Shown piece by piece: positions 8,134 to 50,175 of a stretch of 64,000 bases of DNA (positions are counted from its first letter, which is position 1; the number at the start of each line of letters is the position of its first letter). Under the pieces are notes generated by a model. That model did not search any database, had not been told where the DNA came from, and was given only the letters and a program-made list of their open reading frames with translations. The stretch comes from Bacteroidales bacterium (GTDB taxonomy: Bacteria > Bacteroidota > Bacteroidia > Bacteroidales > M50B96): NCBI GenBank assembly GCA_018401015.1, contig JAGYLP010000004.1, positions 19,307 through 83,306 of the forward strand, in the 5' to 3' direction. A program made the translations under genes and the position numbers.

Positions 8134-9867
8134 CTATACATCCTCCTTCGACGCCAAGGGGTACAACTGCTTGAATGCTTCTTTGGGATTCGTATGAGCA
8201 ACATCCCATACCTGAATTGCACTCAAATCAAATTGTGCAATCACTGGCTCCACGAACAAACGACGAACCGAGAGGATAATCGGTCCGGGATACGACCGAA
8301 GTATTCCCTGCAGGCCTTCACTCCAAGCTTTGCCTTCTACCTCGGCCATTCCTACCTCGTCGACAATAAACACATCGGCCTTTGTTTCGAAATCGGACAA
8401 CAGCTTTTTCCCCACCGATAATCCCTCAGGGTGAAAATAAAAACGCCCAACTGCTTCGCTGCCCTCGATAACTTCGGTTTGTAATAATGGATGTTTGGAA
8501 CCGCTTGCCAAATTAAGCAAATAATAGCCACGGGTTTCCTCGTCTTGCATTGTGCGCAAGGACAAAAATCCAGCAGGTTTTACAGAATGCATTTTACATT
8601 CCTCAACCAGCTCTGCAAGAAAACTTGTTTTACCCTCTGCTTTATCGCCGATTAGCATAAAAATTCGCTGTTGGTGTTGCTGACGGTAAGTATAAAGCAA
8701 TCGATCGGCATGTTCCATTAAAACCTGCACCACTTCGAAGGGCGATTTTAAATAAGTGCGGGCCGACGGGAGAATTTGAAGAACAGACCCAACCGACCGG
8801 AAAGATAATTCGAGAGCCTGATGCAATTGTCGGAACCGCGATTGCTTGAAATAATTGACAATAGTCGGATTGTAGAGCTCTTTCCCGATGGCCGAAAAGC
8901 CGAGAATAATTAAAGCAGCTCGAAAGTTCATTTGAATACCTGCCATCAATCCTCCTTTCCAGCCGCCGCCTCCGGATTGAACCGAACCAAGAATTAAGGC
9001 AGCCAAAAGGGTAATGAGCACGAACCAAATCCAGAATTTTGGTTTGGAAAGCTGGCGCATAGCCGACCGATAATGATGGATCCAATACCAAACGATTAGA
9101 AGTGTAAGCGGAACCCAAACATACCAAGGAGCAAGACTAAAGCTTAGTAATCCGCCAATTAACAAAAAGATGTTCAAGACGAGGCGCACCCGCGAAAATT
9201 CAAACGGACCTCCGTAAGAAGGCAATTGTTCCGTCGTATCGAAGGAAATTGTTCGGAGGGAGCTTCCGGTAAGGCGCTTCCCGGCTCTCATGCCAATGAC
9301 TGCCGCCCAAATCCCACTCAACAAATGAATGACTAACAATACAAATATAGGCAACCACACCAGGTCGGTTGTGATGGCCAATTGTTTTTCGGCCATTTGC
9401 ATCAAATGAGTGTAAATATCGACAATGCCGGCTCCGTAGAAAATGATCAAATTCACCACACGCTGCACCAATACCCACGACATGGCAAGCGCAGCGCCCA
9501 CGAGGTAACCCAAAATATTCTTTCCCAAGATTCGAACGGAAATTTCCAGGAGGAGGGCTTCGGTAAAGATGGCGATCATGGGACCGAAAATAACTGCACT
9601 AGGTGAAGCTGTCTTGAGTATAGCAGTAATCAATCCGGCTCGCCAGAATAATCCATTCTCCTTCCAACGATAGTTCACCGAAATGAGCAGGATAAGTGCA
9701 ATACCGGTTAAGATATTTCCGCTAAATGGAAATTTGACATTGTGTAAAAAACTTCCAATTAAGATTTCGCTGGCTGCCCAGGTTGTTCCCAGCACAGAGG
9801 CCTTTAGCCACTTATCGTTTAAACCTCCTGAGCTATGCTTCACTGATGCAGATTTTTTCGGCAGCAT
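8134..9867 (-). CDS. Fusion protein with an N-terminal polytopic membrane domain and a C-terminal small P-loop NTPase (DUF2478/THEP1-like)
   Basis: 577 aa with multiple hydrophobic helices through about aa 330. The C-terminal ~180 aa carries a Walker A-like GDKAEGKTS and a Walker B FIVDEVG. It overlaps the upstream DUF364 gene by 35 nt. Confidence 0.6.
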   Translation of the reverse strand: MLPKKSASVKHSSGGLNDKWLKASVLGTTWAASEILIGSFLHNVKFPFSGNILTGIALILLISVNYRWKENGLFWRAGLITAILKTASPSAVIFGPMIAIFTEALLLEISVRILGKNILGYLVGAALAMSWVLVQRVVNLIIFYGAGIVDIYTHLMQMAEKQLAITTDLVWLPIFVLLVIHLLSGIWAAVIGMRAGKRLTGSSLRTISFDTTEQLPSYGGPFEFSRVRLVLNIFLLIGGLLSFSLAPWYVWVPLTLLIVWYWIHHYRSAMRQLSKPKFWIWFVLITLLAALILGSVQSGGGGWKGGLMAGIQMNFRAALIILGFSAIGKELYNPTIVNYFKQSRFRQLHQALELSFRSVGSVLQILPSARTYLKSPFEVVQVLMEHADRLLYTYRQQHQQRIFMLIGDKAEGKTSFLAELVEECKMHSVKPAGFLSLRTMQDEETRGYYLLNLASGSKHPLLQTEVIEGSEAVGRFYFHPEGLSVGKKLLSDFETKADVFIVDEVGMAEVEGKAWSEGLQGILRSYPGPIILSVRRLFVEPVIAQFDLSAIQVWDVAHTNPKEAFKQLYPLASKEDV

Positions 9868-10636
9868 ATTTAAAAAGATGATAACCGGCGGCTCCTTGCG
9901 TAATAAGTGGGAAAAGCAAATCGGGTTGGGTTATCCGTGTTCCTCCAACATACCGAATCCCATACTTAAAGAAAACTTCGGGTAACAAGTTACTCGATGG
10001 CCCTACCACCACCGTTTCGGTACCGGGCTGAACAAAGCTCAATAGCTTATCGAAAGTTTTATTGACCAGGGTAAGACCGGTAATTAGCAAAAAATCGGCC
10101 TGAGGAATTATTTCCGGATACCGTTCGGCAGGAACATAATATTTACGATGTTGCGGCTCCAATGCATGTTTATTGAATTCTAAAACACTTAATTCACAGC
10201 CCATTGCATCGCAGCGTTGAATATAAGACTGAAAAGCTCCTACCAAAACGACCCGAATACCCGGCTTAACATCGAGCAAATCGAAAGGATCGGTATTCGA
10301 ATGAACGCGATAGGGCTGGGAAGGAAGTAGGCCACTGGCCAATGCATTGATGGTTGCAATCCGTAGCATTTGAATGCTGGCACTCTCTTTCGAAATCTGC
10401 AGTAATTCCGACACAAAATGACCTTCCATGTGCAAAGGAGTAAAGGCCCCAAAATCACGCTTATCCTTGATGCAATGAATATCGGAATCATCAATGGTGC
10501 TCGATAAGCCTAACCAACCGTTATCGAGTCGCACACCGCAAAGGTGTTTCCCGATAACTACCGAATCCAGTCGAGTTTCCTGGCACAATTTGCCATAATC
10601 CGTTAACAGAATTTCCTTTACTTCGTTAATCAGCAT
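9833..10636 (-). CDS. DUF4213/DUF364-type protein (Rossmann-like, 'putative heavy-metal chelation' family)
   Basis: 267 aa. The pattern is ...GVRLDNGWLGLSST... followed by IRVVLVGAF, ADFLLITGLTLVN and VVVGPS. The family was assigned from remembered motif architecture and was not searched. Confidence 0.6.
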   Translation of the reverse strand: MLINEVKEILLTDYGKLCQETRLDSVVIGKHLCGVRLDNGWLGLSSTIDDSDIHCIKDKRDFGAFTPLHMEGHFVSELLQISKESASIQMLRIATINALASGLLPSQPYRVHSNTDPFDLLDVKPGIRVVLVGAFQSYIQRCDAMGCELSVLEFNKHALEPQHRKYYVPAERYPEIIPQADFLLITGLTLVNKTFDKLLSFVQPGTETVVVGPSSNLLPEVFFKYGIRYVGGTRITQPDLLFPLITQGAAGYHLFKYAAEKICISEA

Positions 10637-11009: not shown

Positions 11010-12161
11010 CTAGTCGATTTCCAAATTCTCGTCGGAAATAATATCGGGCAAAATTACACTGATGGTAGTTCCGACACCTACTTCCGAATGCAGTTTAATG
11101 TCGCCTTTGTAGAGGGCTACCATCTTTTTAACGATGGATAAGCCAAGACCGGAGCCACTGATATTGCGGGTTTGAGCGTTTTTGATACGACTAAACTCCT
11201 GAAACAACTGGGTTTGATCCTCGGCGCTAATGCCTATTCCTGTATCGATTACCTGGATAGTCACCTTATCGCGTTTCCGGTCGAGTACAACCGTTACCTT
11301 CCCTCCATCGCGATTATACTTCACGGCATTGCTAATGAGGTTATTCAGAATAATCTCCATTTCTTCGGAATCGGCAATGAAGTAGAAGGGTTTATCGGTC
11401 GATAATTCCATGTGGAGGTTACGTTGAATAGCCATTGGCTCCATGGTGTGGATGGCCAGGGTGGCTATTTCGGCCAAGTCGACTTTTTTCAGGAAGCGTC
11501 GTTTTTTGCCGGTTTCAATGCGGGTGAGATCGAGCATATCCATAATCAGATTGCGCATACCAGCCATCCGGACGAGCGATCGTTCGATCATTTCCATATA
11601 ATCGTCGAGTTGGTCGCCAACTTGTTTTTCCTTCATGATTCGAAGGTAGCCCTCCACTGCATTGATAGGCGATTTTAGCTCGTGCGACAGAACGGAAAGG
11701 AATTGAAAGCGGATTTGCTTTCCTTCTTCGTTCATGCGCTGGGTCATCCGCTTCAGAAACAGATGCTTGGTTAAATTTTCAATGGCCGATCGCAACTCCT
11801 GAGGTGTAAATGGCTTAGGCACAAAATTGTAAGCTCCATTACGGGTTGCTTTTACCGCTAAATCCAGACTCGCATAACTGGTAATCATCATCACCATCGC
11901 ATCGAGGTTCATGCGCTTAATTTGCTCGAGCAAATCGATTCCTTGTATGCCGGGCAATTTATTGTCGAGCATAATGATATCGACCGTTTCGCGCTCAATA
12001 ATCGCTAAGCCTTCCTCTCCACTGGCTGCCTCTTTTATTTCGAAACCAAAATCTTGGTCCATAAAAGGGAAACCAACCTCATAGTGTTGGAGTACCCGCC
12101 GAATACCACTGCGAATGCCGGGTTCGTCGTCTACAACCAATACCACTAATTTATTTTCCAT
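11010..12161 (-). CDS. Hybrid receiver-histidine kinase (REC-HisKA-HATPase_c)
   Basis: 383 aa. REC: LVVDDEPGIRSG, IIMLDNKLPG, FVPKPF. H-box: SHELKSPINA. N-box: NLISNAVKYN. G-boxes: DTGIGI and GSGLGLSI. Confidence 0.9.
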   Translation of the reverse strand: MENKLVVLVVDDEPGIRSGIRRVLQHYEVGFPFMDQDFGFEIKEAASGEEGLAIIERETVDIIMLDNKLPGIQGIDLLEQIKRMNLDAMVMMITSYASLDLAVKATRNGAYNFVPKPFTPQELRSAIENLTKHLFLKRMTQRMNEEGKQIRFQFLSVLSHELKSPINAVEGYLRIMKEKQVGDQLDDYMEMIERSLVRMAGMRNLIMDMLDLTRIETGKKRRFLKKVDLAEIATLAIHTMEPMAIQRNLHMELSTDKPFYFIADSEEMEIILNNLISNAVKYNRDGGKVTVVLDRKRDKVTIQVIDTGIGISAEDQTQLFQEFSRIKNAQTRNISGSGLGLSIVKKMVALYKGDIKLHSEVGVGTTISVILPDIISDENLEID

Positions 12162-12658: not shown

Positions 12659-14638
12659 TTACTTAGGCAAATGAATGATAAAATGGGTTCCGGTAGGTCC
12701 TTTCTCCGGTTGATTATTGGTTTCTACTTCAATTTTTCCATGATGCATTTTAATGATGCCATATACTAAGGGCAAACCGAGCCCTGTTCCTTTTCCAATT
12801 CCCTTTGTAGTAAAAAAGGGGGTGAAAATTTTATCCATATTTTCCGGCGAAATACCGGTACCGTTGTCGGATACCCGTATCTCAAAGGTTTCATCGTGCT
12901 CTTTTAAGTGTACGCTTAGCGTTCCTCCGTGTGGCATGGCCTCAATGGCATTTTTTTCCAGATTGGTAAGCACTTGCATCATTTGATCGTAATCGAAAAA
13001 GGCAATGGCACGCTGAACATCGCTCGAAAACTCGACCTGAACATTATCTGGAACAACCACCGATTGAAGACTTTGTTTACAAAATTCAACGAGGGAATAT
13101 TCCGATTTCTGAAGCTGATTCTTTCGAGCAAAATTAAGCAATCCACCTACTATTTTTTTGCAACGGTCGGCTTGTTCAGCAATCAATTCAACATCGTTGC
13201 GGGTTGGATCGTCCTGCGCTAATTCATCGAGCAAAATATTGCTATACATGGTTATTACGCCGAGCGGATTATTGAGCTCGTGAGCAATCCCGGCCGATAG
13301 TTGCCCCATGTTAGCCAATTTCTCCTGATGCTTGAGGGCTCGTTTGGCATCGTCGAGCAAATGATTAGATTGATCCAGTGCACTGAGCGACTGGTGAAGT
13401 TTTTCGATGGCATAGGGTAAGCACATTTCTATTTCGGCTAATCCGTCGATGATGGCCATAGCATGTTTCTCGCAGGTAGAATAGCCGCATGCTCCGCAAT
13501 TGAGATGATCGCTGCTATCGTATTTGCCCATTTCGGCCAACACATGATCGATTCGTTCGCGGGTAGGGGTTTTTGAACGCCGGTCCATGATTTGAAACGA
13601 CTGGCTCATATCGAGTTGCCCGATGAAATCGAGGTCCACTTGCCACTTCGACCAATCCAGGCGGGCGAGCTTCGAGGCTACATAATTTGCTACATGAGCT
13701 TTTCGCTGATAGCGTTTCCCTTGTGGCGACATACCGGGTCCCATGATGCATCCTTCGCAACTTAACAATTCGACATGCCGCGCTTTAATTTCTCCCGAAT
13801 CGAGTGCTTGAATCACCTCGCGAACATTTTGTTTCCCTTCGGCTACAACTACATCGCCCGACAATAAATCGTCGTGCAGCCCCATGGTATGCAACATTCC
13901 TTTACTCACAGGAAATACCGCTCCTTTAGCTGCGTGAGGTGGATCGAAATCGGTTATTTTTCCAGCTTCATAGGTAACCTGGCGTGCGTTAAAAACCTGC
14001 CTTAGTTCCTGAAAAGTGATCACACAATCGACCTCGTTCGATTCAGCCTTCTTGGCAATGCATGGTCCGATGAAAACAACTTTGGGATTCCGAGGAGCAT
14101 ATTTTTCTTTCAAGTAACGCGTCATGGCCACCATTGGAGAGGCCACCCTGGCAAGGCTCGATACTAGTTTAGGGTAATATTGCTCAATGTAGTAAACAAT
14201 GGCCGGACAATCGGATGAGATGAAGATTTCCTGGTCCGATTCACGCTGAAGCTTTTGGTAAGCCTGAGCAACGGCATCGGCTCCAAAGCCGACCTCTACG
14301 GCGAGCTTAAAGCCCAAATCGCGGAGCATGGGTACGAGAGCCCTAGGATCGTCGAACTCGTCGAACTCGGCTGGAAACGAGGGAGCCACGGCGGCAATTA
14401 CAAAGTCGTTTGAATCCAGCATTTCAAGCAACTCGTTGGTATTGGAGACATAAATTTTGGCACCCTGACTGCAAACCTTAACGCAATTTCCACAAGCAAT
14501 GCAGCGTTCGCCAAGAACTTCGGCTTGTCCATTGATGATTTTAATGGCTTTAGCCGGGCACTCACGAACGCAGGTATAGCATACCCTGCATTTGTTCATC
14601 AGTGTTTCCACTACATATTTGCCATTACCGTGACTCAT
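12659..14638 (-). CDS. Soluble sensor histidine kinase with an [FeFe]-hydrogenase-like (H-domain) input module; putative H2/redox sensor
   Basis: 659 aa with no TM segment. It has two Cx2Cx2Cx3C ferredoxin motifs (C17.., C46..). H-cluster-like signatures are SSDCPAI, GPCIAKKAE and ELLSCEGCIMGPG. A Cx2Cx4Cx16C motif spans C381-C406. The HisKA motif is IAHELNNPLG. The HATPase_c domain includes GTGLGLPLV. Confidence 0.85.
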   Translation of the reverse strand: MSHGNGKYVVETLMNKCRVCYTCVRECPAKAIKIINGQAEVLGERCIACGNCVKVCSQGAKIYVSNTNELLEMLDSNDFVIAAVAPSFPAEFDEFDDPRALVPMLRDLGFKLAVEVGFGADAVAQAYQKLQRESDQEIFISSDCPAIVYYIEQYYPKLVSSLARVASPMVAMTRYLKEKYAPRNPKVVFIGPCIAKKAESNEVDCVITFQELRQVFNARQVTYEAGKITDFDPPHAAKGAVFPVSKGMLHTMGLHDDLLSGDVVVAEGKQNVREVIQALDSGEIKARHVELLSCEGCIMGPGMSPQGKRYQRKAHVANYVASKLARLDWSKWQVDLDFIGQLDMSQSFQIMDRRSKTPTRERIDHVLAEMGKYDSSDHLNCGACGYSTCEKHAMAIIDGLAEIEMCLPYAIEKLHQSLSALDQSNHLLDDAKRALKHQEKLANMGQLSAGIAHELNNPLGVITMYSNILLDELAQDDPTRNDVELIAEQADRCKKIVGGLLNFARKNQLQKSEYSLVEFCKQSLQSVVVPDNVQVEFSSDVQRAIAFFDYDQMMQVLTNLEKNAIEAMPHGGTLSVHLKEHDETFEIRVSDNGTGISPENMDKIFTPFFTTKGIGKGTGLGLPLVYGIIKMHHGKIEVETNNQPEKGPTGTHFIIHLPK

Positions 14639-14650
14639 CTTTCTATTCCT

Positions 14651-16378
14651 CTATTTCAAAATATCTTCCCGAATACGATAGCGTGTATGCAATAAGTGAT
14701 GCGCAATTTCACTGTTTGGTTCACCCAAAAAGCTTCGATATAATTCAATCACCTCCGGATTTTTATGCGATACCCGCAAGGATTCTTTCATATCGGCTGA
14801 ATAAATGGTTTGCATACGAGCAGCCAGTGCTTCCGGACTGGCGCCAATTTTTTGTCCGCCGCCTCCAATACATCCACTCGGACAAGCCATTACTTCAACA
14901 AAATGTAAGTCGTTGCGACCGGCTCGAATTTCATCGAGCAAGACTTTGGCATTGCTTATTCCGTTTACCACGGCTACTCCTAGGGTCAATCCATTCACTT
15001 CGACTTTCGCTTCTTTTCGGCCAGCTAAACCACGTAATTCTTTAATTTGGAATTTAATCAGCTCTTCACCGGTTAGTTTCCAATAGGCGGTACGAATCGC
15101 AGCTTCCATTACACCTCCTGTTACACCAAAGAGCTTTCCGGCGGTACTACGTGCACCCAAAGGTGAATCGGTTATTTCCGGCTCCAACTTGTGAATATCG
15201 ACTCCATAAAGCTTGATGAATCGGGCCAGCTCGCGGGTAGTTAAAATCGCATCCACATCTACAATTCCTTTGGAAACCATTTCTTCGCGCTGTGCTTCGA
15301 ATTTTTTTGCTGTACAAGGCATGATCGAAACAGAGTAGATATCTTCCTTCCGCAAATTCATTCTCTCGGCAAAATAGGTTTTTATTACAGCTCCCATCAT
15401 TTGCTGTGGCGATTTACAAGAAGACAACAAAGGGAGCAGGTCGCCGGCAAATTCCTCGGCGTACTTTACCCATCCCGGGCAGCAACTTGTCATGAGGGGT
15501 AATCGTTCATTTTTCTGAATCCGATCGATTAATTCAGTCGATTCTTCCATAATCGTTAAATCGGCTGCAAAGGTGGTGTCGAAGATAAAATCGAATCCCA
15601 ATTTCCGAAGAGCGGCATTCATTACACCATTGATATCCAATCCGGGTTCCATGTTAAACTCTTCGGCCAGCGAAACAGAAATAGAGGGGGCGTACTGCAC
15701 CACTACTACTTTTTTCGGATTGGCCAGGGCATCCTGAATCTCGGCAAAGTGATTTTTTTCGGTTAAAGCTCCGGTTGGACAAACCATGATGCACTGTCCG
15801 CAATTAATGCAACTGGAAACATTCAAGCCTCGATTGTAGGTTGTACTAATAATCGATTGACTACCGCGATTGGCAAAATCGATACAAGCAACACCCATGG
15901 TTTCCTCGCAAACCACAACACATCGTCCGCATAAAATACACTTCGAAGGATCGCGCACAATGGAAGCCGAACTCATATCGAGATGATAATTATTCTTTTC
16001 GCCTCGAACCCGACGGTCGTCAACATGCAGTTCTTCTGCTAAGTCCTGTAGTTCGCAATTTTTGTTTCGAACGCAATACAAACAGTCGTCGGGATGATTC
16101 GACAGCAGCAACTCAACGATGGTTTTTCTCGATTCTGCCACACGCTGCGATTGAGTATCAATGCGCATCCCTTGCTCAACCGGATGAGAGCACGAGGTGA
16201 TGAGCTTACCATTACTTTTATTTTCTACCACACACATCCGGCAGGCTCCGGTTGGGAGTTTATCTTTCATGTGACATAGCGTGGGTATTTTAATCCCAAT
16301 TCGGCTCAGCACATCGAGCAAATATTCTCCGGATTGAACCGGAACTTGTTCTTTATTGATTTCTATCGTGAAGTCCAT
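14651..16378 (-). CDS. hydA: [FeFe]-hydrogenase catalytic subunit HydA (trimeric, NAD(P)H/ferredoxin-linked type)
   Basis: 575 aa with an N-terminal 2Fe-2S domain and 4Fe-4S motifs (CILCGRCVVVC, CINCGQCIMVCP). The canonical H-cluster signatures are TSCCPGW, MPCTAKKFE and EVMACPSGCIGGGGQ. Confidence 0.93.
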   Translation of the reverse strand: MDFTIEINKEQVPVQSGEYLLDVLSRIGIKIPTLCHMKDKLPTGACRMCVVENKSNGKLITSCSHPVEQGMRIDTQSQRVAESRKTIVELLLSNHPDDCLYCVRNKNCELQDLAEELHVDDRRVRGEKNNYHLDMSSASIVRDPSKCILCGRCVVVCEETMGVACIDFANRGSQSIISTTYNRGLNVSSCINCGQCIMVCPTGALTEKNHFAEIQDALANPKKVVVVQYAPSISVSLAEEFNMEPGLDINGVMNAALRKLGFDFIFDTTFAADLTIMEESTELIDRIQKNERLPLMTSCCPGWVKYAEEFAGDLLPLLSSCKSPQQMMGAVIKTYFAERMNLRKEDIYSVSIMPCTAKKFEAQREEMVSKGIVDVDAILTTRELARFIKLYGVDIHKLEPEITDSPLGARSTAGKLFGVTGGVMEAAIRTAYWKLTGEELIKFQIKELRGLAGRKEAKVEVNGLTLGVAVVNGISNAKVLLDEIRAGRNDLHFVEVMACPSGCIGGGGQKIGASPEALAARMQTIYSADMKESLRVSHKNPEVIELYRSFLGEPNSEIAHHLLHTRYRIREDILK

Positions 16379-16396: not shown

Positions 16397-18340
16397 TTAA
16401 AAAATTTCGATAGCATCGAATTTACAAGCCTCCTGACAAGCTCCGCAGGCAATACACTTCTCTTCGATAATGAAATGCGGCGTTTTTTTGGCTCCTATTA
16501 TCGCTTGAGTCGGACATTTTTTCAAACAAACCATACAACCAGTGCATGCTTCGACATTGATTCGGAAGATGCGCAACTCGGTGCAAACTCCTGCGCGGCA
16601 TTTCCGGTCGAAAATGTGCTCTTCGTACTCATCTTTGAACCAACGCAAAGTGCTCAATACGGGGTTTGGAGCAGTCTGTCCCAATCCGCATAAGGAGGTA
16701 TCTTTAATCACCTCGGCTAAACGCTCAAGTTGCATCAAACTTTTTATCCGCTCCAAGGCTTCGTAGCGCTCTTCGTGAACCGGCTTTTTGGTTATAGTTT
16801 CTAATATCTCCAACATCCGCTTTGTTCCCTCGCGACAAGGAATACACTTTCCGCAACTTTCGCGCTGAATGAAGTCCATGAAATATTTTGCCAAGTCCAC
16901 CATGCAAGTGTCTTCGTCCATCACCACCAAACCTCCGGAACCCATCATGGCGCCAACCTTTATCAGCGATTCATAATCGATTTTGATATCCAGATTGGCC
17001 TCGGTAATACAACCTCCCGACGGACCTCCAATTTGCACAGCTTTGAATTTCTTTTTATTGAGAATTCCACCGGAAATGGTGAAAATCACGTCGCGAATGG
17101 TAGTACCCATGGGAATCTCGACCAATCCGGTTAAAGCAACTTTCCCCGACATGGCAAATACTTTTGTTCCTTTCGATGTTTCGGTGCCGATAGAAGCAAA
17201 CCAATCGATTCCTTTAGCTATAATTTCTGGAATATTGGCCAAGGTTTCCACGTTGTTAATAATGGTTGGTTTCTGAAACAATCCGCTTATCGCAGGAAAT
17301 GGCGGACGTGGACGAGGCATTCCGCGTTTACCTTCGATGCTGTGAATAAGCGCTGTTTCTTCGCCGCAAACAAATGCTCCAGCACCCATTTTTACTTTGA
17401 TATCGAAGGATATTCCCGTGCCAAAAATATTTTCTCCCAACAAACCATATTCCCGGGCCTGATCCAGTGCAATTCGTAATCGCTTAATAGCCAGCGGATA
17501 TTCAGCCCGAATATACACATAAGCTATACTGGCTCCGATTCCGTAAGCTGCAATGGCCATTCCTTCGAGCAAGCGATGAGGATCGCCTTCGATAACGGCT
17601 CTATCCATGAATGCACCGGGGTCACCTTCGTCGGCATTGCAAATCAAATATTTCTGTGTGGAATTTTGGGCTAAGGCAAATTTCCATTTTTTACCGGTAG
17701 GGAAACCGCCGCCACCACGACCTCGCAAGCCCGACTTTTCAATCATATCGCACACTTCGGCCGACGTATGCTGACGAATAATGCGCAAGAAACTGGCATA
17801 TCCTCCGGCTGCAATATATTCTTCGATGCTAACCGGATCCAGAATACCGCAGTTCTTCAAAACCAATCGGGTTTGAGGAGCGAAAAAGGGATGCTCGTGC
17901 AAAAACGGAACGGCTAGCCAGCTGCGATTACCCTGATCAAATTGCATTAGTGAAGCAGTATAATCGACTTCGAGGGTAAAGATTTTATCGAGTAATCCAG
18001 CCACCTTTTCTTGTGTTACTTGTTGAAAAGAAATGCGATTATAGCCGGGTAATTGAACATCGAGGATAGGCTCGGCCGAGCACAAACCAATACAACCAAC
18101 CTCGATTACCTGAGCATCGATGGATTGTTGTTCTAAATACGATTTAACAGCAGCTAAGGTTTTGTCGGCTCCTGCGCCTAATCCGCAGGTTCCAGCTCCG
18201 ATATAAATAACGGGCTTGCTTACCTCCTTCCGCAATAAATGCTGAAGCCTTTGCTCATCGAGCTGTACATTATCGTATTTCCCTTTGCTTAAGAGCGTTG
18301 TGAGAAATTCTTTATTGCTTGGGTTTTTCTTCCTGGCCAT
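16397..18340 (-). CDS. hydB: Hydrogenase flavoprotein subunit HydB (NuoF-like)
   Basis: 647 aa with a thioredoxin-like 2Fe-2S N-terminus. FMN/NADH site GRGGGGFPTGKKW and SCGKCIPCREG. Two C-terminal 4Fe-4S motifs: CTGCMVCLKKCP and CIACGACQEACK. Confidence 0.9.
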   Translation of the reverse strand: MARKKNPSNKEFLTTLLSKGKYDNVQLDEQRLQHLLRKEVSKPVIYIGAGTCGLGAGADKTLAAVKSYLEQQSIDAQVIEVGCIGLCSAEPILDVQLPGYNRISFQQVTQEKVAGLLDKIFTLEVDYTASLMQFDQGNRSWLAVPFLHEHPFFAPQTRLVLKNCGILDPVSIEEYIAAGGYASFLRIIRQHTSAEVCDMIEKSGLRGRGGGGFPTGKKWKFALAQNSTQKYLICNADEGDPGAFMDRAVIEGDPHRLLEGMAIAAYGIGASIAYVYIRAEYPLAIKRLRIALDQAREYGLLGENIFGTGISFDIKVKMGAGAFVCGEETALIHSIEGKRGMPRPRPPFPAISGLFQKPTIINNVETLANIPEIIAKGIDWFASIGTETSKGTKVFAMSGKVALTGLVEIPMGTTIRDVIFTISGGILNKKKFKAVQIGGPSGGCITEANLDIKIDYESLIKVGAMMGSGGLVVMDEDTCMVDLAKYFMDFIQRESCGKCIPCREGTKRMLEILETITKKPVHEERYEALERIKSLMQLERLAEVIKDTSLCGLGQTAPNPVLSTLRWFKDEYEEHIFDRKCRAGVCTELRIFRINVEACTGCMVCLKKCPTQAIIGAKKTPHFIIEEKCIACGACQEACKFDAIEIF

Positions 18341-38306: not shown

Positions 38307-38603
38307 ATGTTCAATCGTAAACCACAAAGTGATGCCGATTTTCTGAAGGAATGGGAAAATCTTCGTAAGAATAAAGCGACTTACATTCTGGTAAAAGGAA
38401 TCATCAGTTATGGTCTGGTTTTAGGCTTTGCTGTTGCCTTGCTCCTTTTTCTCTCCAAAGGGATTGATGCCGACCCCATGAAAGTGCTTCAGATCTTGCT
38501 GATTTTTTCCTTATTTGGAATGATACGAGCGTGGATCCGCTTTCAATTTTTCGAAAAACAATATCAAAAACTGAAAGAAACCCAGGAAGACGAAGCAAGC
38601 TAG
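38307..38603 (+). CDS. Small membrane protein, hypothetical
   Basis: 98 aa with two hydrophobic helices. It starts 2 nt after the tsaD stop. Confidence 0.45.
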   Translation: MFNRKPQSDADFLKEWENLRKNKATYILVKGIISYGLVLGFAVALLLFLSKGIDADPMKVLQILLIFSLFGMIRAWIRFQFFEKQYQKLKETQEDEAS

Positions 38604-40021
38604 AATTGCTGTTCCAGATGTTCTAATTTGATATTTAGATTGGTTCTTCCTTCAAAATGACGAGCGAGGTATTCGGCACAATACACCGACCGATGCTGTC
38701 CTCCGGTGCATCCAAAGCTTACCATTAAATGATGAAAGCCCCTTTGTAGGTAGTTTTCGACTCCTTGTTCTACAAGTTGAATGGCCTCTGCGAGGAATTT
38801 ATCCACTTCGGGCAACTTCCGCAGGTAATCAATAACCGGCTGATCCCTACCCGTTAGCAACTGATATTCCTTTTCGCGTCCGGGATTGGGCAAAATGCGG
38901 CAATCGAAGGCAAATCCTCCGCCATTTCCCGAAGGATCGGCAGGAAAACCTTTTCGATAAGAGAAACTTTGAATCCTTAATACCAAACCATTCGACTCAT
39001 TCTTCTCCGAAGGAACTACCTGAACTTTTTCGGCTGCTTGTAAAAGATGGTCGGTTAAGGCTGGGTACTGTTCTTGCGCAGATGCTTCCGCTAAGAGAAT
39101 CGGGAGTTGCTCGAAAGCCTTTGGTATCGACTCCAGGAAATGAGGTTTCTTCTCAAAATAGCCCCGGTAGCCATAAGCTCCCAAAACCTGTAAAAAGCGG
39201 ACTAAGCGATAGTAGTTCAATTCACGGTCGAACAGCACTGAATCGACACCGGTTCTCGCAAGAAACTCCTGTTTATAAACCTGAATCAATTCCTGTTGAA
39301 GCTCGTAAGGCATTTCCGCTTTTGCCTGAAAAACGAAAGAGACCAAATCGTACAAGGGAGAACCTTTCCTTCCACCTTGGTAGTCGATAAACCTGACGCC
39401 CTCATTTGTAATCATGATGTTGCGGGATTGGAAATCGCGCAACATGAAAAAATGAGGAAAATCGCGATTAAATGCATCTACAATGCGATTAAAATCATGC
39501 TCTAATCGCTCTTCGTCGAGATGTTCGAGAACTGGTTTGAGGAAATAATACTTGAAATAATTTAGGTCCCAACGAATCGATTGCTCATCCATAATGGCGC
39601 GTGGATAAGCCACAGAATAGTCCAGCAAGCGATCGCCTTCGATTTGCAAACGGAGCAGTTCGCGTGTACTTTCCTGGAAAAGACTTTTCACTTCGCTGGT
39701 CCATCCTGATTTCTTCAGCAGGTTAAAAAGGATTTCATCGCCCAGATCTTCTTGAAGATAAAATTCCTCTTCGGGCTCGATTGCCAGAAAGCGCGGAACC
39801 CGGAGGTTCAAGGAATTGAAATGCTTTGAAAAAGCTACAAAGGCTCGATTTTCTTTTACATTGGGATTATAGGCAGCTAAGAGAGACTCACCTTTCGCAT
39901 TAAAAATACGATAATACTTACGGTTACTACCGGCTCCAGGAAGTTCGAGGATGGATTGCACCTCAAACTGCTGAAAATCCTTTGCGAGTTGCTGAATGCG
40001 ATGGATAGCGTTTTGATTCAT
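38600..40021 (-). CDS. Fusion of an AmgK/APH-like (eukaryotic-like fold) kinase domain and a RapZ C-terminal domain
   Basis: The N-terminal half has Brenner-type LRDFQSRNIM and IDYQGG...PLYDLVSFV, resembling the remembered AmgK pattern HRDxHSRNLM...DFQDA..GP..YDLvSLL. The C-terminal half has SFSYRKGFPAD...FDCRILPNP...TGRD.PV..YL...SFGCTGGQHRSVYCAEYLA, which aligns by eye to E. coli RapZ residues about 160-284. No P-loop is present. Confidence 0.75.
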   Translation of the reverse strand: MNQNAIHRIQQLAKDFQQFEVQSILELPGAGSNRKYYRIFNAKGESLLAAYNPNVKENRAFVAFSKHFNSLNLRVPRFLAIEPEEEFYLQEDLGDEILFNLLKKSGWTSEVKSLFQESTRELLRLQIEGDRLLDYSVAYPRAIMDEQSIRWDLNYFKYYFLKPVLEHLDEERLEHDFNRIVDAFNRDFPHFFMLRDFQSRNIMITNEGVRFIDYQGGRKGSPLYDLVSFVFQAKAEMPYELQQELIQVYKQEFLARTGVDSVLFDRELNYYRLVRFLQVLGAYGYRGYFEKKPHFLESIPKAFEQLPILLAEASAQEQYPALTDHLLQAAEKVQVVPSEKNESNGLVLRIQSFSYRKGFPADPSGNGGGFAFDCRILPNPGREKEYQLLTGRDQPVIDYLRKLPEVDKFLAEAIQLVEQGVENYLQRGFHHLMVSFGCTGGQHRSVYCAEYLARHFEGRTNLNIKLEHLEQQF

Positions 40022-40040: not shown

Positions 40041-40048
40041 ACAAAGGT
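40041..40048 (-). promoter_or_regulatory. Bacteroidota -7 box (TACCTTTG on the minus strand)
   Basis: CAAAGGTA on the plus strand, 20 nt upstream of ATG 40021. Confidence 0.45.
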
Positions 40049-40147
40049 AGGAAAGCCGCGTGAGAATGAGCGGTTGAACCATCATTTTCACTATCATTAC
40101 TCCGAAAAATAATGGAGTAAATTAATTCCCGAAAGGTTTCTTCCGGC

Positions 40148-48167: not shown

Positions 48168-50175
48168 ATGGATTTTAAACTCGTTTCAGACTTCAAACCA
48201 ACCGGCGATCAGCCGGAAGCTATCCGGCAATTGGTCGATGGGTTTCAGCAAGGAATGCCTTATCAGACCTTATTGGGAGTAACCGGTTCGGGTAAAACCT
48301 TCACGGTGGCAAATGCCATTGCTCAACTGAACCGACCTGTATTGGTTCTTTCGCATAATAAAACACTCGCAGCTCAACTTTATGGCGAGTTCAAGCAGTT
48401 CTTTCCCGAAAATGCCGTAGAGTATTTCCGTATCCTACTACGATTATTATCAACCCGAAGCGTATTTGCCGGTGAGCGATACCTACATCGAAAAAGATTT
48501 ATCGATCAATGAAGAAATTGAAAAACTACGCCTAAGTGCCACTTCTGCTCTCCTGTCGGGCCGACGAGATGTGATCGTGGTTTCGTCCGTTTCATGCTTA
48601 TACGGAATTGGTAATCCAGAGGATTTTCATGCCAATGTTACCCGCGTAACCGTTGGACAAACCATTAGCCGAAATAAAATGCTTCTCCAATTGGTCGAAG
48701 CACTTTATGCACGAAATGAAGTGGTTTTTAAGCGAGGTACTTTTCGTGTTAAAGGAGACAATGTCGATATCTTCATTGCTTATGGCGACGTGGCTTATCG
48801 CATTACTTTCTGGGGCGACACCATCGAGGAGATTATCAGCTTCGACCCTGAAACAGGGCACACTCTCGAACATCTGAACGAAGCGGTGATTTACCCGGCT
48901 AACATCTTTGTAACCACCAAAGAACGAATGCATAAAGCGATTCGGGGAATCCAGGACGATATGCTTGCGCAGGTCACCTATTTCAAAGAAATTGGAAAAT
49001 ACGGCGAAGCCAAACGGCTCGAAGAACGCGTAAGTTACGATCTGGAAATGATCAAAGAACTTGGATACTGTTCCGGTATCGAAAACTATTCACGTTACTT
49101 CGACGGACGCCCCACGGGGACTCGACCGTTCTGTTTATTGGATTATTTCCCGCAGGATTTCGTCACGGTCATTGATGAGAGCCATGTAACGATTCCACAA
49201 ATCCATGCTATGTATGGTGGAGATTATTCCAGAAAGAAAAACCTGGTTGAATATGGATTTCGATTACCCGCTGCCTTGGACAATCGTCCGCTGAAATTTC
49301 ACGAATTCGAGAACTTGGTCAATCAGCTTCTATTTGTAAGTGCCACCCCTGCCAATTATGAATTAGAAAAATCGGAAGGGATTATCGTTGAACAAGTTAT
49401 TCGTCCAACCGGACTATTAGATCCGCTCATCGAAGTGCGTCCTTCGATGCACCAAATAGACGATCTGGTACAGGAGATGAAAAAGCGGATTGCCCTCAAA
49501 GAACGGGTGCTGGTAACCACCCTCACCAAACGCATGGCAGAAGAATTGTCCAAATACCTCGAAAAAATTTCCATTGCCTGTACTTACATTCACTCCGACA
49601 TTGACACCATGGATCGAATCGAAATCATGGATGGACTTCGCTCCGGAAAATTTGACGTCCTTATTGGGGTAAACCTACTCCGCGAAGGCTTAGATTTACC
49701 GGAGGTGAGTTTAGTTGCCATTCTCGATGCCGATAAAGAAGGCTTCCTGCGCTCGGAACGATCCCTAACACAAACAGCAGGGAGAGCCGCTCGAAATGTC
49801 AATGGATTGGTCGTGATGTATGCCGATAAAATAACCGATAGCATGCGACGCACCATCGACGAGACCAATCGGCGCAGGAGTAAGCAGATCAGCTACAACG
49901 AAGAGCACGGCATCACCCCTCGATCCATTAAAAAAGCAACGGGCAGCCTTATGGGTCGATTCGATGAAATAACCCGATCCTACACCGAACCAGCGAAAGT
50001 CGATATAGCCGCCGATCCGGTGGTGAAATACATGAAGCCCGATGCGCTCAAAAAAGCCATTGAAAAAACCAAAGCGGCCATGAAGAAAGCCGCTTCCGAG
50101 CTAGATTTTATCGAAGCAGCCCGATTACGCGACGAGATGTACGATTTGGAACGATTATTAAAAGAACGGAGTTGA
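48168..50175 (+). pseudogene. uvrB: uvrB (excinuclease ABC subunit B) interrupted by a single-base insertion near 48428-48429. This is either a true frameshift or a sequence error.
   Basis: Track ORFs 48168..48512 and 48466..50175 are in different frames. The first encodes the UvrB N-terminus ([15 protein letters not shown], ...ENAVEYF) and then nonsense. Reading gag tat ttc [c] gta tcc tac tac gat tat tat caa ccc gaa restores the universal [23 protein letters not shown]. That sequence runs into the second ORF, which carries the helicase motifs and the C-terminal UVR motif LDFIEAARLRDEMYDLE. Confidence 0.9.

Follow-up and report, generated by a model that had tools for sequence, protein, structure and literature searches.

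An AmgK-like sugar kinase fused to a RapZ-type C-terminal domain, usually encoded beside a MurU-like uridylyltransferase, is common in Bacteroidota

Analysis of the gene at positions 38600–40021 of the 64-kb window, by which we mean the whole stretch of DNA analysed here, confirmed that it is a true fusion of the RapZ C-terminal domain with an APH-fold kinase. On the evidence set out below, we consider it somewhat probable that the gene encodes an anomeric amino-sugar kinase of AmgK/MurU-type peptidoglycan-sugar salvage, which carries a dimerising, ligand-binding RapZ-type C-terminal domain (CTD) that is not an sRNA adaptor. The two parts of this reading are held with different confidence: it is highly likely that the protein is a salvage kinase of the AmgK kind that acts together with MurU, while the proposal that the CTD dimerises and binds a ligand, as opposed to catalysing a reaction, binding RNA or having a purely structural role, is tentative and falls a little short of probable.

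In Pseudomonas putida and P. aeruginosa, AmgK phosphorylates MurNAc and GlcNAc at the anomeric position; Legionella, Caulobacter and Tannerella possess orthologues. The E. coli protein RapZ (YhbJ) senses GlcN6P and serves as an adaptor that links the sRNA GlmZ to RNase E (PDB 5o5o, 5o5s and 8b0i; NF003828, PRK05416), and its homologue in B. subtilis is YvcJ. None of the literature matches listed joins RapZ (or YvcJ) with AmgK.

The open reading frame is intact and encodes 473 aa from an ATG start. The AlphaFold model of the whole protein has a pLDDT of 93.4 and a pTM of 0.76, and its least confident stretch is the linker between the two domains, the length and sequence of which differ among aligned members of the family. 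The layout of the gene is as follows:

38600–40021, minus strand: complete gene, AmgK-like kinase/RapZ_C fusion, 473 aa, stop codon at 38600–38602 (ORF list, Pfam and NCBIfam matches, AlphaFold model)
39026–40021, minus strand: N-terminal APH/ePK-fold kinase domain, AmgK-like, aa 1–332 (PF01636, AmgK models, Foldseek)
38987–39025, minus strand: inter-domain linker, aa 333–345 (VQVVPSEKNESNG), a block of the model with pLDDT 70–77 and no secondary structure
38603–38986, minus strand: RapZ C-terminal domain (PF22740), aa 346–473 (Pfam, 5o5s match, CTD model)
40042–40049, minus strand: candidate Bacteroidota-type −7 promoter element TACCTTTG, read from the sequence, 20 nt upstream of the ATG

The candidate −7 element lies in the 126-nt divergent spacer between the fusion gene and recQ; the Bacteroides-type −7 consensus is TAnnTTTG. 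An earlier note, made from the sequence alone, had described a RapZ C-terminal domain joined to a kinase-fold domain that looked most like AmgK, and had called for profile searches and structure prediction; both halves were upheld by these (PF22740 and PF01636; RapZ and APH folds).

The Pfam APH family PF01636 matches aa 25–247 of the kinase half (E=7e-11), and the two AmgK models of NCBIfam, NF045759 (60 bits) and NF045698 (40 bits), are its best kinase families, the next one reaching only 14 bits (E=0.03). AmgK was likewise the top curated kinase family in all 24 members of the fusion family that were tested. The window kinase shares with AmgK the APH/ePK-like fold and the same pattern of catalytic and Mg loops, but the AmgK scores are far below the equivalog cut-offs of 550 bits (NF045759) and 500 bits (NF045698), so that it is a distant relative of AmgK and not an equivalog, and MurNAc or GlcNAc is its putative substrate. 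A further difference from AmgK is the additional 128-aa RapZ_C domain, the AmgK models (324 and 360 positions) ending before it. Among solved structures, 3csv resembles the kinase half most closely, both by sequence (E=9e-17) and by structure (Foldseek, TM 0.80). It is a structural-genomics entry for a 'putative aminoglycoside phosphotransferase' of Silicibacter sp. TM1040 and, unlike the window protein, consists of one domain (333 aa) and lacks RapZ_C. Choline, MTR and aminoglycoside kinases follow among the Foldseek matches.

Conservation was counted in a 100-sequence alignment of the family, the members of which are about 45% identical overall. Three motifs stand out in the kinase half, two of which contain the segments quoted in the earlier note, at coordinates that we checked (RDFQSRN at aa 195–201 and IDYQGG at aa 212–217):

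39908–39931, minus strand: N-lobe strand motif GSNRKYYR, aa 31–38, with S32, R34, Y36 and R38 invariant
39419–39439, minus strand: catalytic loop RDFQSRN, aa 195–201, present in 99/100 members, with D196 and N201 invariant
39371–39388, minus strand: IDYQGG, aa 212–217, DFG-equivalent, present in 100/100 members, with the Mg-binding Asp D213 invariant

GSNRKYYR aligns with GDASSRRYQR of 3csv, and its role is probably a nucleotide or phosphate contact; the catalytic loop aligns with HRDFHAQN of 3csv, with D196 as the predicted catalytic base and N201 as a predicted metal ligand. Because the catalytic residues are invariant, the kinase is not a degenerate accessory.

The fusion is very common in Bacteroidota and present in some other phyla. 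Clustering of the family at 90% identity gives no fewer than 8,000 clusters and clustering at 50% identity gives 664 representatives, and the family occurs in at least 600 species genomes. Ignavibacteriales share the architecture, as do Acidobacteriota, in which it lies on long contigs reaching 2.28 Mb, and the previous description of it as Bacteroidota-specific was thus wrong.

A MurU-like uridylyltransferase gene is present at 60 of the 80 species loci that we inspected, in 59 of them directly downstream, in the same orientation and separated by 12–547 nt. Four of the 20 loci without such a gene have too little downstream DNA, leaving 76 testable loci; at the 16 others, where 3.4 kb or more of downstream sequence is available, no MurU-like gene was found. 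Unbiased clustering of neighbouring ORFs identified the MurU-like gene as the sole conserved neighbour; the other surrounding genes vary and, murU apart, carry no peptidoglycan-recycling signature. The kinase–MurU arrangement, an operon as in AmgK-encoding genomes, recurs on independent contigs, on metagenome contigs and in one Tannerella sp. genome. The MurU model NF045761 (MurNAc-alpha-1-phosphate uridylyltransferase) is the best NCBIfam match for five of five neighbours, four of which align with the full model, at 125–148 bits (cut-off 250).

Furthermore, nine independent 50%-identity representatives of 712–760 aa combine APH, RapZ_C and NTP_transferase domains in a single chain, and MurU is the best match of the third domain in all five tested. 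Such triple fusions might be suspected of being gene-calling artefacts; their occurrence as nine separate representatives speaks against this, as does the finding that two of them are continuous ORFs on their contigs, each seen on a single contig. In total, each of the 10 transferases or transferase domains tested had MurU as its top curated family. Like MurU, the neighbour or third domain is a minimal NTP_transferase of about 240 aa; its scores across the family (92–148 bits), unlike those of MurU equivalogs, remain below the cut-off. The low equivalog scores for AmgK, RapZ and MurU alike mean that orthology with the characterised proteobacterial enzymes is distant.

The MurU-like gene directly downstream in 59 of 76 loci, together with the nine MurU fusions, leads us to read the protein as the first enzyme of an AmgK/MurU-type route. 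The N-terminal APH-fold domain would phosphorylate MurNAc, possibly also GlcNAc, at C1 using ATP; the product is most likely MurNAc or GlcNAc 1-phosphate, as judged from these sequence relationships, and a MurU-like uridylyltransferase would convert it into the UDP-sugar from which the cell wall is built. The previous suggestion that the two halves both indicate metabolism of amino sugars and cell-wall precursors is supported.

The window itself lacks murU: using the neighbours at two of the loci (L001 and L003) as tblastn queries, we obtained no match in the 64 kb to murU, nor to a ROK kinase, MFS transporter or GH109-like gene. A murU-like gene is also absent at a syntenic relative (L005). 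A scan of the window with Rfam at gathering thresholds gave no matches, GlmY and GlmZ included, and no tRNAs were found in it. The earlier observation that neither murU nor GlmY/GlmZ-like sRNAs lie nearby is hence accurate for the 64-kb window, although the state without murU is the exception in the family. In this genome the MurU-like enzyme, which is adjacent or fused in most relatives, would be encoded elsewhere.

Alternatively, the kinase and its MurU-like partner could activate a different sugar, a hexosamine or other monosaccharide used for capsule, LPS or protein glycosylation, and thus form an NDP-sugar salvage pair apart from peptidoglycan recycling. This would fit the AmgK and MurU scores far under the equivalog cut-offs, the variability of the genes around murU with their lack of a recycling signature, and one triple fusion in which MurU scores 93.9 bits and mannose-1-P guanylyltransferase 86.7 bits; moreover, to our knowledge most fusion-bearing genomes do not belong to MurNAc auxotrophs. 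However, AmgK ranks first for every kinase and MurU for every transferase or domain tested, the L001 locus carries ROK-kinase and MFS-transporter genes nearby, and a member of the Bacteroidia, Tannerella forsythia, has been reported to operate the AmgK/MurU pathway, with AmgK and MurU of this species working in E. coli. The exact gene pair, the fusion beside murU, is found in the Tannerella sp. genome. We regard activation of another sugar as quite unlikely. The T. forsythia results also bear on the novelty of the fusion, a function of which may, in part, already have been characterised.

The identity of the CTD was confirmed. PF22740 matches aa 348–470 (E=1.7e-33, 115.8 bits against a cut-off of 27), and a phmmer search of the PDB retrieved the E. 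coli RapZ CTD, 5o5s, with E=8e-17 over aa 346–468, in an alignment that displays all of the RapZ segments quoted from the sequence beforehand (SF.Y.KG.P, FD.R.LPNP, TG.D.PV and GCTGG.HRSVY.AE.LA). An AlphaFold model of aa 335–473 (pLDDT 91.7) superimposes on the 5o5s crystal structure with a TM of 0.88, an rmsd of 1.8 Å and 34% identity. When this model was searched against the PDB with Foldseek, ranks 1–16 were all RapZ and the next match had E=0.15. The fructose-6-phosphate-binding subdomain of 6-phosphofructokinase has been described in the literature as remotely related in structure to the RapZ CTD, and weak Foldseek matches of the CTD model to this enzyme were likewise seen (3o8o, E=0.84). 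As in RapZ, a kinase-type domain precedes the CTD; in place of the Walker-A, adenylate-kinase-like domain of RapZ, however, there is the unrelated APH-fold kinase. The Walker A motif GxxxxGK[ST] occurs in none of the 100 family members, the window protein included, bearing out the view that the RapZ N-terminal domain is absent, and the NCBIfam RapZ model NF003828 covers only its profile positions 145–275 of 278, with 108 bits against a cut-off of 244. The sites of the CTD to which we refer below are:

38915–38932, minus strand: glycine-rich SGNGGG, aa 364–369, containing a 5-residue insertion relative to E. coli RapZ (the E. coli sequence is gapped here when aligned)
38897–38908, minus strand: FDCR, aa 372–375, all four invariant; F372 corresponds to E. 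coli F181, D373 to D182 and R375 to R184
38876–38887, minus strand: NPGR, aa 379–382, with G381 in place of the E. coli pocket residue H190 and R382 conserved in at least 90% of members
38687–38710, minus strand: anion (phosphate) pocket loop CTGGQHRS, aa 438–445, equivalent to E. coli RapZ C247–S254, between strand 431–438 and helix 444–456 of the model

The dimer interface of RapZ appears to be kept. The E. coli RapZ CTD is dimeric both when crystallised and in solution, and the mutations F181A and D182A, at positions equivalent to F372 and D373, abolish its dimerisation. These data would suit a CTD that is a mere oligomerisation scaffold, di- or tetramerising the kinase with neither ligand nor catalysis. 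Such a scaffold leaves unexplained why the Cys, His, Arg and Ser of the pocket loop are completely invariant among proteins that are otherwise so divergent, and we consider it very unlikely.

The pocket of E. coli RapZ accommodates sulphate, malonate or RNA phosphate and is the proposed site for GlcN6P; of its residues, C247, T248, G249 and R253 matter for function. The C, T, G, G, H, R and S of this loop are 100% invariant in the 100 fusion-family members. The H190 position, in contrast, is Gly in 100/100 members, followed by the conserved Arg, and the pocket of the fusion family is therefore not identical to that of RapZ. Also unlike RapZ, the family has the 5-residue glycine-rich insertion, in which G368 and G369 are invariant and N366 and G367 at least 90% conserved, and an additional invariant cysteine, C374, besides C438 of the pocket.

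Several RNA-contacting residues of E. coli RapZ are replaced. Compared with E. coli RapZ only, K251 is replaced by Q (97%), R238 by F (97%), K270 by V, I or L and K194 by E, and the K281-R282-K283 tail is absent or variable; this tail and K270 together are needed for RNA binding by E. coli RapZ. Because RNA contacts have been replaced by non-basic residues and the basic tail is missing, a role as sRNA adaptor is unlikely. Basic residues persist at four positions (K170 as K or R, R184 as R, R196 as K or R, R268 as K or R), and binding of nucleic acid by the CTD is therefore still possible.

These observations also bear on the proposal that the protein is a rewired RapZ-type regulator, the CTD of which binds a regulatory RNA and/or senses GlcN6P so as to control glmS or a related gene, with the kinase as an accessory that replaces the P-loop domain. 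In favour of a regulator are the genuine RapZ_C fold with its conserved pocket, the retained basic surface, the published finding that the E. coli CTD alone binds both sRNA and GlcN6P, and the name 'RNase adapter RapZ' that NCBI gives to some family members. However, these names are automatic annotations resting on the C-terminal half only, no Rfam RNA family was detected in the 64-kb window, and the sole conserved genomic partner, in contrast to the rpoN-operon genes that accompany RapZ, is a metabolic gene whose product is sometimes part of the same chain; the replaced RNA contacts and the invariant kinase residues likewise count against it. We consider such a regulator highly improbable. 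Thus, of the earlier suggestion of a rewired RapZ-type sensor with ligand and output yet to be named, the RapZ_C fold and its pocket stood, while the suggestion as a whole is weaker than a plain metabolic reading in light of the linkage to MurU, the nine fusions and the loss of RNA contacts.

Another possibility is that the RapZ-type domain is itself an enzyme, its Cys-x5-Arg loop acting on an amino-sugar phosphate and so making the protein bifunctional. It might remove the phosphate from MurNAc-6-phosphate, as MupP does in the Pseudomonas route, work as a phosphomutase, or transfer phosphate so as to supply or process the substrate or product of the kinase. The loop conforms to the signature C-x5-R-[ST] of the Cys-x5-Arg phosphatases (PTP, LMW-PTP and arsenate-reductase types) in 100/100 members (C438-TGGQH-R444-S445), as it does to C-x2-G-x2-R-[ST], with C438, H443, R444 and S445 all invariant, and in the model it lies between a β-strand and the N-terminus of a helix, a topology that would resemble that of phosphate-binding catalytic loops. 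Together with the family-specific C374 and a published hint that E. coli C247 is perhaps catalytic, the invariant Cys loop is no less compatible with catalysis by the CTD than with sensing, and in the triple fusions the domain is placed between two pathway enzymes. Against this, D373, a possible general acid, is already accounted for as a dimer-interface residue, and the Foldseek matches of the CTD model include no phosphatase, arsenate-reductase or rhodanese fold, only RapZ being significant and the next matches having E>0.1. We accordingly rejected the notion that the CTD has a PTP-type phosphatase fold, the likeness being a local motif. We know of no RapZ_C domain with demonstrated catalytic activity, and an enzymatic CTD seems unlikely to us.

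We return to the RapZ-type domain as a candidate dimerising sugar-phosphate binder and not an sRNA adaptor, which we infer from the kept pocket and dimer residues and the replaced RNA contacts. It would most likely dimerise the enzyme and bind a phosphorylated amino sugar, candidates for which are the 1-phosphate product, a 6-phosphate (GlcN6P, GlcNAc6P or MurNAc6P) and the UDP-sugar; binding may either match the activity of the kinase to the availability of precursors or retain the intermediate until MurU can use it. A broader proposal is that RapZ_C is an ancient amino-sugar-phosphate module, set beside a kinase-type domain and not primarily RNA-binding, which in the fusion family either catalyses a salvage step (such as a MupP-like or phosphomutase reaction) by means of the Cys-x5-Arg loop or gates the kinase according to a sugar phosphate. 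We regard the broader proposal as doubtful, though conceivable.

The AmgK/MurU bypass confers intrinsic tolerance to fosfomycin, and it is through this bypass that peptidoglycan becomes labelled with MurNAc probes. If the fusion family is the Bacteroidota version of it, the bypass would reach far beyond the small number of species studied, across Bacteroidota of the gut, the mouth and the environment. The family's thousands of clusters are now labelled 'phosphotransferase' or, misleadingly, 'RNase adapter RapZ', and the evidence favours calling them AmgK-like salvage kinases that bear a RapZ-type domain and are usually co-encoded with MurU. The presence of a RapZ domain on a sugar kinase, and sometimes also on the next enzyme, ties its pocket to amino-sugar phosphates independently of sRNA, and with the fusion family it would be simpler to establish in vitro what the RapZ pocket binds or which reaction it carries out, and what its essential cysteine does. 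If RapZ_C does prove to be an ancient sugar-phosphate module, the sRNA-adaptor function of the enterobacterial protein would be a late addition to an unrecognised enzymatic or sensor function.

The architecture proposed in the earlier note, a RapZ C-terminal domain joined to an APH-type kinase domain, was fully confirmed for the product of the following gene:

38600–40021 (-): kinase/RapZ_C fusion gene, an intact ORF encoding 473 aa

Pfam places PF22740 (RapZ C-terminal domain) at aa 348–470 (E=1.7e-33) and an APH-family kinase domain at aa 25–247 (E=7e-11) of this window protein. Among solved structures, the E. coli RapZ C-terminal domain (CTD; 5o5s) aligns with the C-terminal 123 aa (E=8e-17), its conserved blocks being exactly those that the note had quoted, and 3csv, an unassigned 'aminoglycoside phosphotransferase', aligns with the N-terminal 285 aa (E=9e-17). 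In the full-length AlphaFold model, computed from 100 homologues (pLDDT 93.4, pTM 0.76), the kinase (aa 1–332) is connected by a low-confidence linker (aa 333–345) to an alpha/beta C-terminal domain. With this model, the best Foldseek match was 3csv (TM 0.80); kinases of corramycin, choline, methylthioribose and aminoglycosides ranked next, and RapZ matched the C-terminal part. Furthermore, a separate model of aa 335–473 (pLDDT 91.7) superimposes on the RapZ CTD crystal structure with a TM of 0.88 and an rmsd of 1.8 A at 34% identity, and a Foldseek search with it ranked RapZ at positions 1–16, the following match having E=0.15. Profile searches and structure models thus uphold both halves. 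The reported loss of the RapZ P-loop domain also stands: the NCBIfam RapZ model matches through its C-terminal half alone (profile positions 145–275 of 278; 108 bits against a cut-off of 244), and the Walker A motif is absent from the window protein and from all 100 relatives searched.

The top kinase families for the window protein in NCBIfam are two AmgK models (60 and 40 bits, far under their cut-offs of 550 and 500), the third-ranked family reaching only 14 bits, and AmgK was the nearest curated family for all 24 fusion-family members tested. In 100 aligned members sharing only about 45% identity, the catalytic loop RDFQSRN (D196, N201) and the Mg loop IDYQGG (D213) vary little or not at all, which argues that the kinase is under selection as an enzyme. 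AmgK phosphorylates the anomeric carbon of MurNAc and GlcNAc, and MurU converts MurNAc-alpha-1-phosphate to UDP-MurNAc, so that MurA and MurB are bypassed; the pathway has been reported from Pseudomonas, Legionella, Caulobacter and the Bacteroidia member Tannerella forsythia, whose AmgK and MurU work when expressed in E. coli. The window protein is predicted to work in the same way as AmgK, but its score falls below the equivalog level and it has an extra domain. From these similarities, we infer that the fusion family represents a Bacteroidota-type AmgK. With the sub-threshold scores on one side and the uniform nearest-family assignments on the other, a kinase acting on a different sugar substrate appears improbable.

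The gene neighborhoods point to the same pathway. A MurU-like nucleotidyltransferase gene was found in 60 of 80 species loci, directly downstream and on the same strand in 59 of these (gap 12–547 nt). Downstream sequence is shorter than 1.2 kb in four of the 20 loci lacking it, which leaves 76 testable loci, 59 of them with the gene directly downstream. Unbiased clustering of neighboring ORFs identified it as the sole conserved neighbor. MurU (NF045761) was the top NCBIfam family for all five neighbors, from different lineages (125–148 bits); these scores are under the cut-off of 250, yet exceed the best non-MurU family by 27–62 bits. The full model was aligned in four of the five, the best stretch in the Tannerella sp. 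neighbor covering positions 1–157 of 226. The fusion-murU pair also occurs on independent contigs and in a Tannerella sp. genome. The strongest evidence for the kinase-MurU link is a set of single-chain APH-RapZ_C-NTP_transferase proteins (712–760 aa), nine of which were among the top 150 representatives of the family search:

P0278, P0301, P0313, P0317, P0359, P0360, P0367, P0378, P0379 (loci L094 and L095): triple fusions

MurU was the best match of the third domain in all five tested, and the two genes inspected on their contigs are both continuous ORFs. All scores of the family to the characterised enzymes stay under the curated cut-offs. Conserved gene order and this Rosetta-stone fusion together argue that the kinase is functionally linked to a MurU-type uridylyltransferase, and we consider the assignment of the fusion family to the kinase/MurU pathway quite probable.

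At L094, an MFS_1/BT1 transporter gene, perhaps that of the sugar importer, lies divergently to the triple-fusion gene. On a 4.1-Mb contig (L001, 9632–14956), genes for a ROK-family kinase, an MFS transporter and a GFO_IDH/GH109-like protein come after the fusion-murU pair. Together they may form a larger cluster for amino-sugar salvage, with a ROK kinase reminiscent of MurK and an MFS transporter reminiscent of MurT. The extended cluster is not conserved in the other loci.

In E. coli RapZ, H190, T248, G249, H252 and R253 form an anion pocket, next to which lies C247. Sulphate or malonate binds in this pocket, which also contacts the RNA backbone and has been proposed as the GlcN6P site. Neither K170 nor C247 is dispensable, the C247S variant being inactive; CTD dimerisation needs F181 and D182, and RNA binding needs K270, K281, R282 and K283. 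We compared these and further residues in 100 family members with E. coli RapZ only.

E. coli RapZ residues and their counterparts in the fusion family
C247-T-G-G-x-H-R-S254 (anion pocket loop): C438–S445, 100% invariant
F181, D182 (CTD dimerisation): F372, D373, invariant
K170 (essential, near RNA backbone): K or R in 97%
R184 (basic patch): R in 100%
H190 (pocket): Gly in 100%, then a conserved Arg
K251 (RNA contact): Gln in 97%
R238 (basic patch): Phe in 97%
K270 (RNA binding): V, I or L
K194 (basic patch): mostly Glu
K281-R282-K283 (RNA-binding tail): absent or variable

The family has two features that E. coli RapZ lacks, a Gly-rich insertion of five residues (within SGNGGG) and an additional invariant Cys at position 374. 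This comparison indicates that phosphate pocket and dimer interface are retained in the CTD, whereas the surface that binds RNA in E. coli is not. Thus, at the level of sequence, an AmgK-like kinase with intact catalytic residues is covalently joined to a RapZ-type domain whose pocket and dimer interface are intact. The window protein shares its CTD with RapZ but falls outside that family, having neither the P-loop domain nor the RNA-binding residues of E. coli RapZ nor, within the window, the sRNAs. An sRNA-adaptor or sensor function, the earlier note having suggested a rewired RapZ-type sensor, is the least probable of the readings considered. A RapZ domain serving purely as a scaffold, for which the dimer residues would suffice and the invariant pocket loop would not be needed, is very unlikely as well.

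We infer instead that the kinase would make MurNAc (and/or GlcNAc) alpha-1-phosphate for MurU, and that the CTD would dimerise the enzyme and bind a phosphorylated amino sugar; the ligand-bound CTD might then tune salvage flux to precursor supply, or keep the intermediate for MurU. The position of the CTD between two catalytic domains in the triple fusions fits either role. We give slightly less than an even chance to a CTD that dimerises and binds a ligand, as opposed to one that is catalytic, binds RNA or plays a purely structural part. A CTD that is itself catalytic would account for the invariant C-x2-G-x2-R-S loop in a strand-loop-helix topology and for published hints on E. coli C247, the authors of that work having suggested a possible catalytic role for the thiol and described a ligand that had been chemically changed in their GlcN6P-grown crystals; however, Foldseek found no phosphatase-type fold matches for the CTD model, and we regard this alternative as unlikely. 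The fusion is best described, in our interpretation, as a putative AmgK/MurU-type salvage kinase that recruited the C-terminal module of RapZ; seen from the other side, it is a RapZ_C domain whose N-terminal kinase-like partner was swapped.

A word-indexed protein search gave at least 8,000 fusion-family matches (8,000 of 8,000 candidates scored), the best 120 of which are 457–513 aa long and all contain PF22740 and PF01636, a combination already present in precomputed Pfam annotations. HMMER against 1.84 billion 50%-identity representatives yielded 664 proteins at E<=1e-30, 3,573 at E<=1e-10 and 8,459 at E<=1e-3. A one-genome-per-species scan produced at least 600 matches, with 597 confirmed among the matches listed; 80 species loci were retained, the taxon labels of MAG contigs being the depositors' own. 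These include Bacteroidales (Bacteroides, Phocaeicola plebeius DSM 17135, Parabacteroides, Tannerella sp., Muribaculaceae, Paludibacteraceae, Prolixibacteraceae), Chitinophagales, Sphingobacteriales, Saprospirales, Ignavibacteriales and seven Acidobacteriota/Terriglobales contigs, one of 2.28 Mb. The fusion outside Bacteroidota is found at these loci:

L059, L067, L069, L076, L077, L081, L083: Acidobacteriota
L023, L072: Ignavibacteriales

Contrary to the suggestion of the note, this distribution shows that the architecture is not confined to Bacteroidota. The kinase-RapZ_C and murU pair also occurs outside the phylum, with about 41–45% identity to the window protein, roughly the same as for most Bacteroidota members, which suggests horizontal transfer or an origin predating the phylum. 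Family members are named 'phosphotransferase', 'aminoglycoside/choline kinase family phosphotransferase' or 'RNase adapter RapZ' in their source databases; NCBI uses both 'phosphotransferase' and 'RNase adapter RapZ', inconsistently, within this one family. The RapZ name, which only the C-terminal third supports, is probably misleading. Among the matches listed from the literature on AmgK, MurU and MurNAc, neither RapZ nor YvcJ was found.

In the window, the fusion gene is solitary, divergent from recQ and convergent with tsaD and a small membrane ORF:

38307–38603 (+): 98-aa ORF with a hydrophobic core, overlapping the fusion-gene stop codon by 4 nt

This ORF has no Pfam matches; it probably encodes a real small membrane protein, since the syntenic relative L005 has a 94-aa ORF at the same place. 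L005, whose fusion protein is 61% identical, also lacks murU nearby. A search of the whole 64-kb window found neither a murU-like gene nor a ROK kinase or an MFS transporter, bearing out the note's observation on murU; the murU of the source genome, if present, lies outside the window.

The window also encodes T9SS sorting domains, DUF5063 and an [FeFe]-hydrogenase cluster, which give it the look of DNA from an anaerobic Bacteroidota member. Features away from the fusion gene include:

12659–14638 (-): 659-aa protein beside a HydA/HydB-like [FeFe]-hydrogenase pair, with Fe-only-hydrogenase large-subunit domain, Fe-S motifs, HisKA and HATPase_c
14651–16378, 16397–18340, 11010–12161: neighbors of the 659-aa protein
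48168–48512 and 48466–50175 (+): split uvrB, a 114-aa N-terminal ORF with Walker A and a 569-aa ORF in another frame
8134–9867 (-): 577-aa protein with NTPase_1 (PF03266) on its C-terminal 160 aa only
9833–10636 (-): DUF364/DUF4213 'heavy-metal chelation' gene, overlapped by the gene of the 577-aa protein

The 659-aa protein is followed by a hybrid response-regulator/histidine kinase, and together they look like a sensory hydrogenase-histidine kinase in an H2-sensing two-component system. The uvrB ORFs, which overlap near 48466–48512, are split by a frameshift, caused by either an assembly error or pseudogene formation. The N-terminal 400 aa of the 577-aa protein have no Pfam match.

The biochemistry of the AmgK/MurU pathway is already known. 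Its association with RapZ_C offers a way of studying the function of the RapZ pocket, and of the cysteine essential there, that does not depend on an sRNA, and the domain analysis corrects the widespread 'RNase adapter RapZ' annotation. Furthermore, the distribution of the family suggests that the MurU bypass is widespread in Bacteroidota, which bears on fosfomycin tolerance and on labelling with MurNAc probes.
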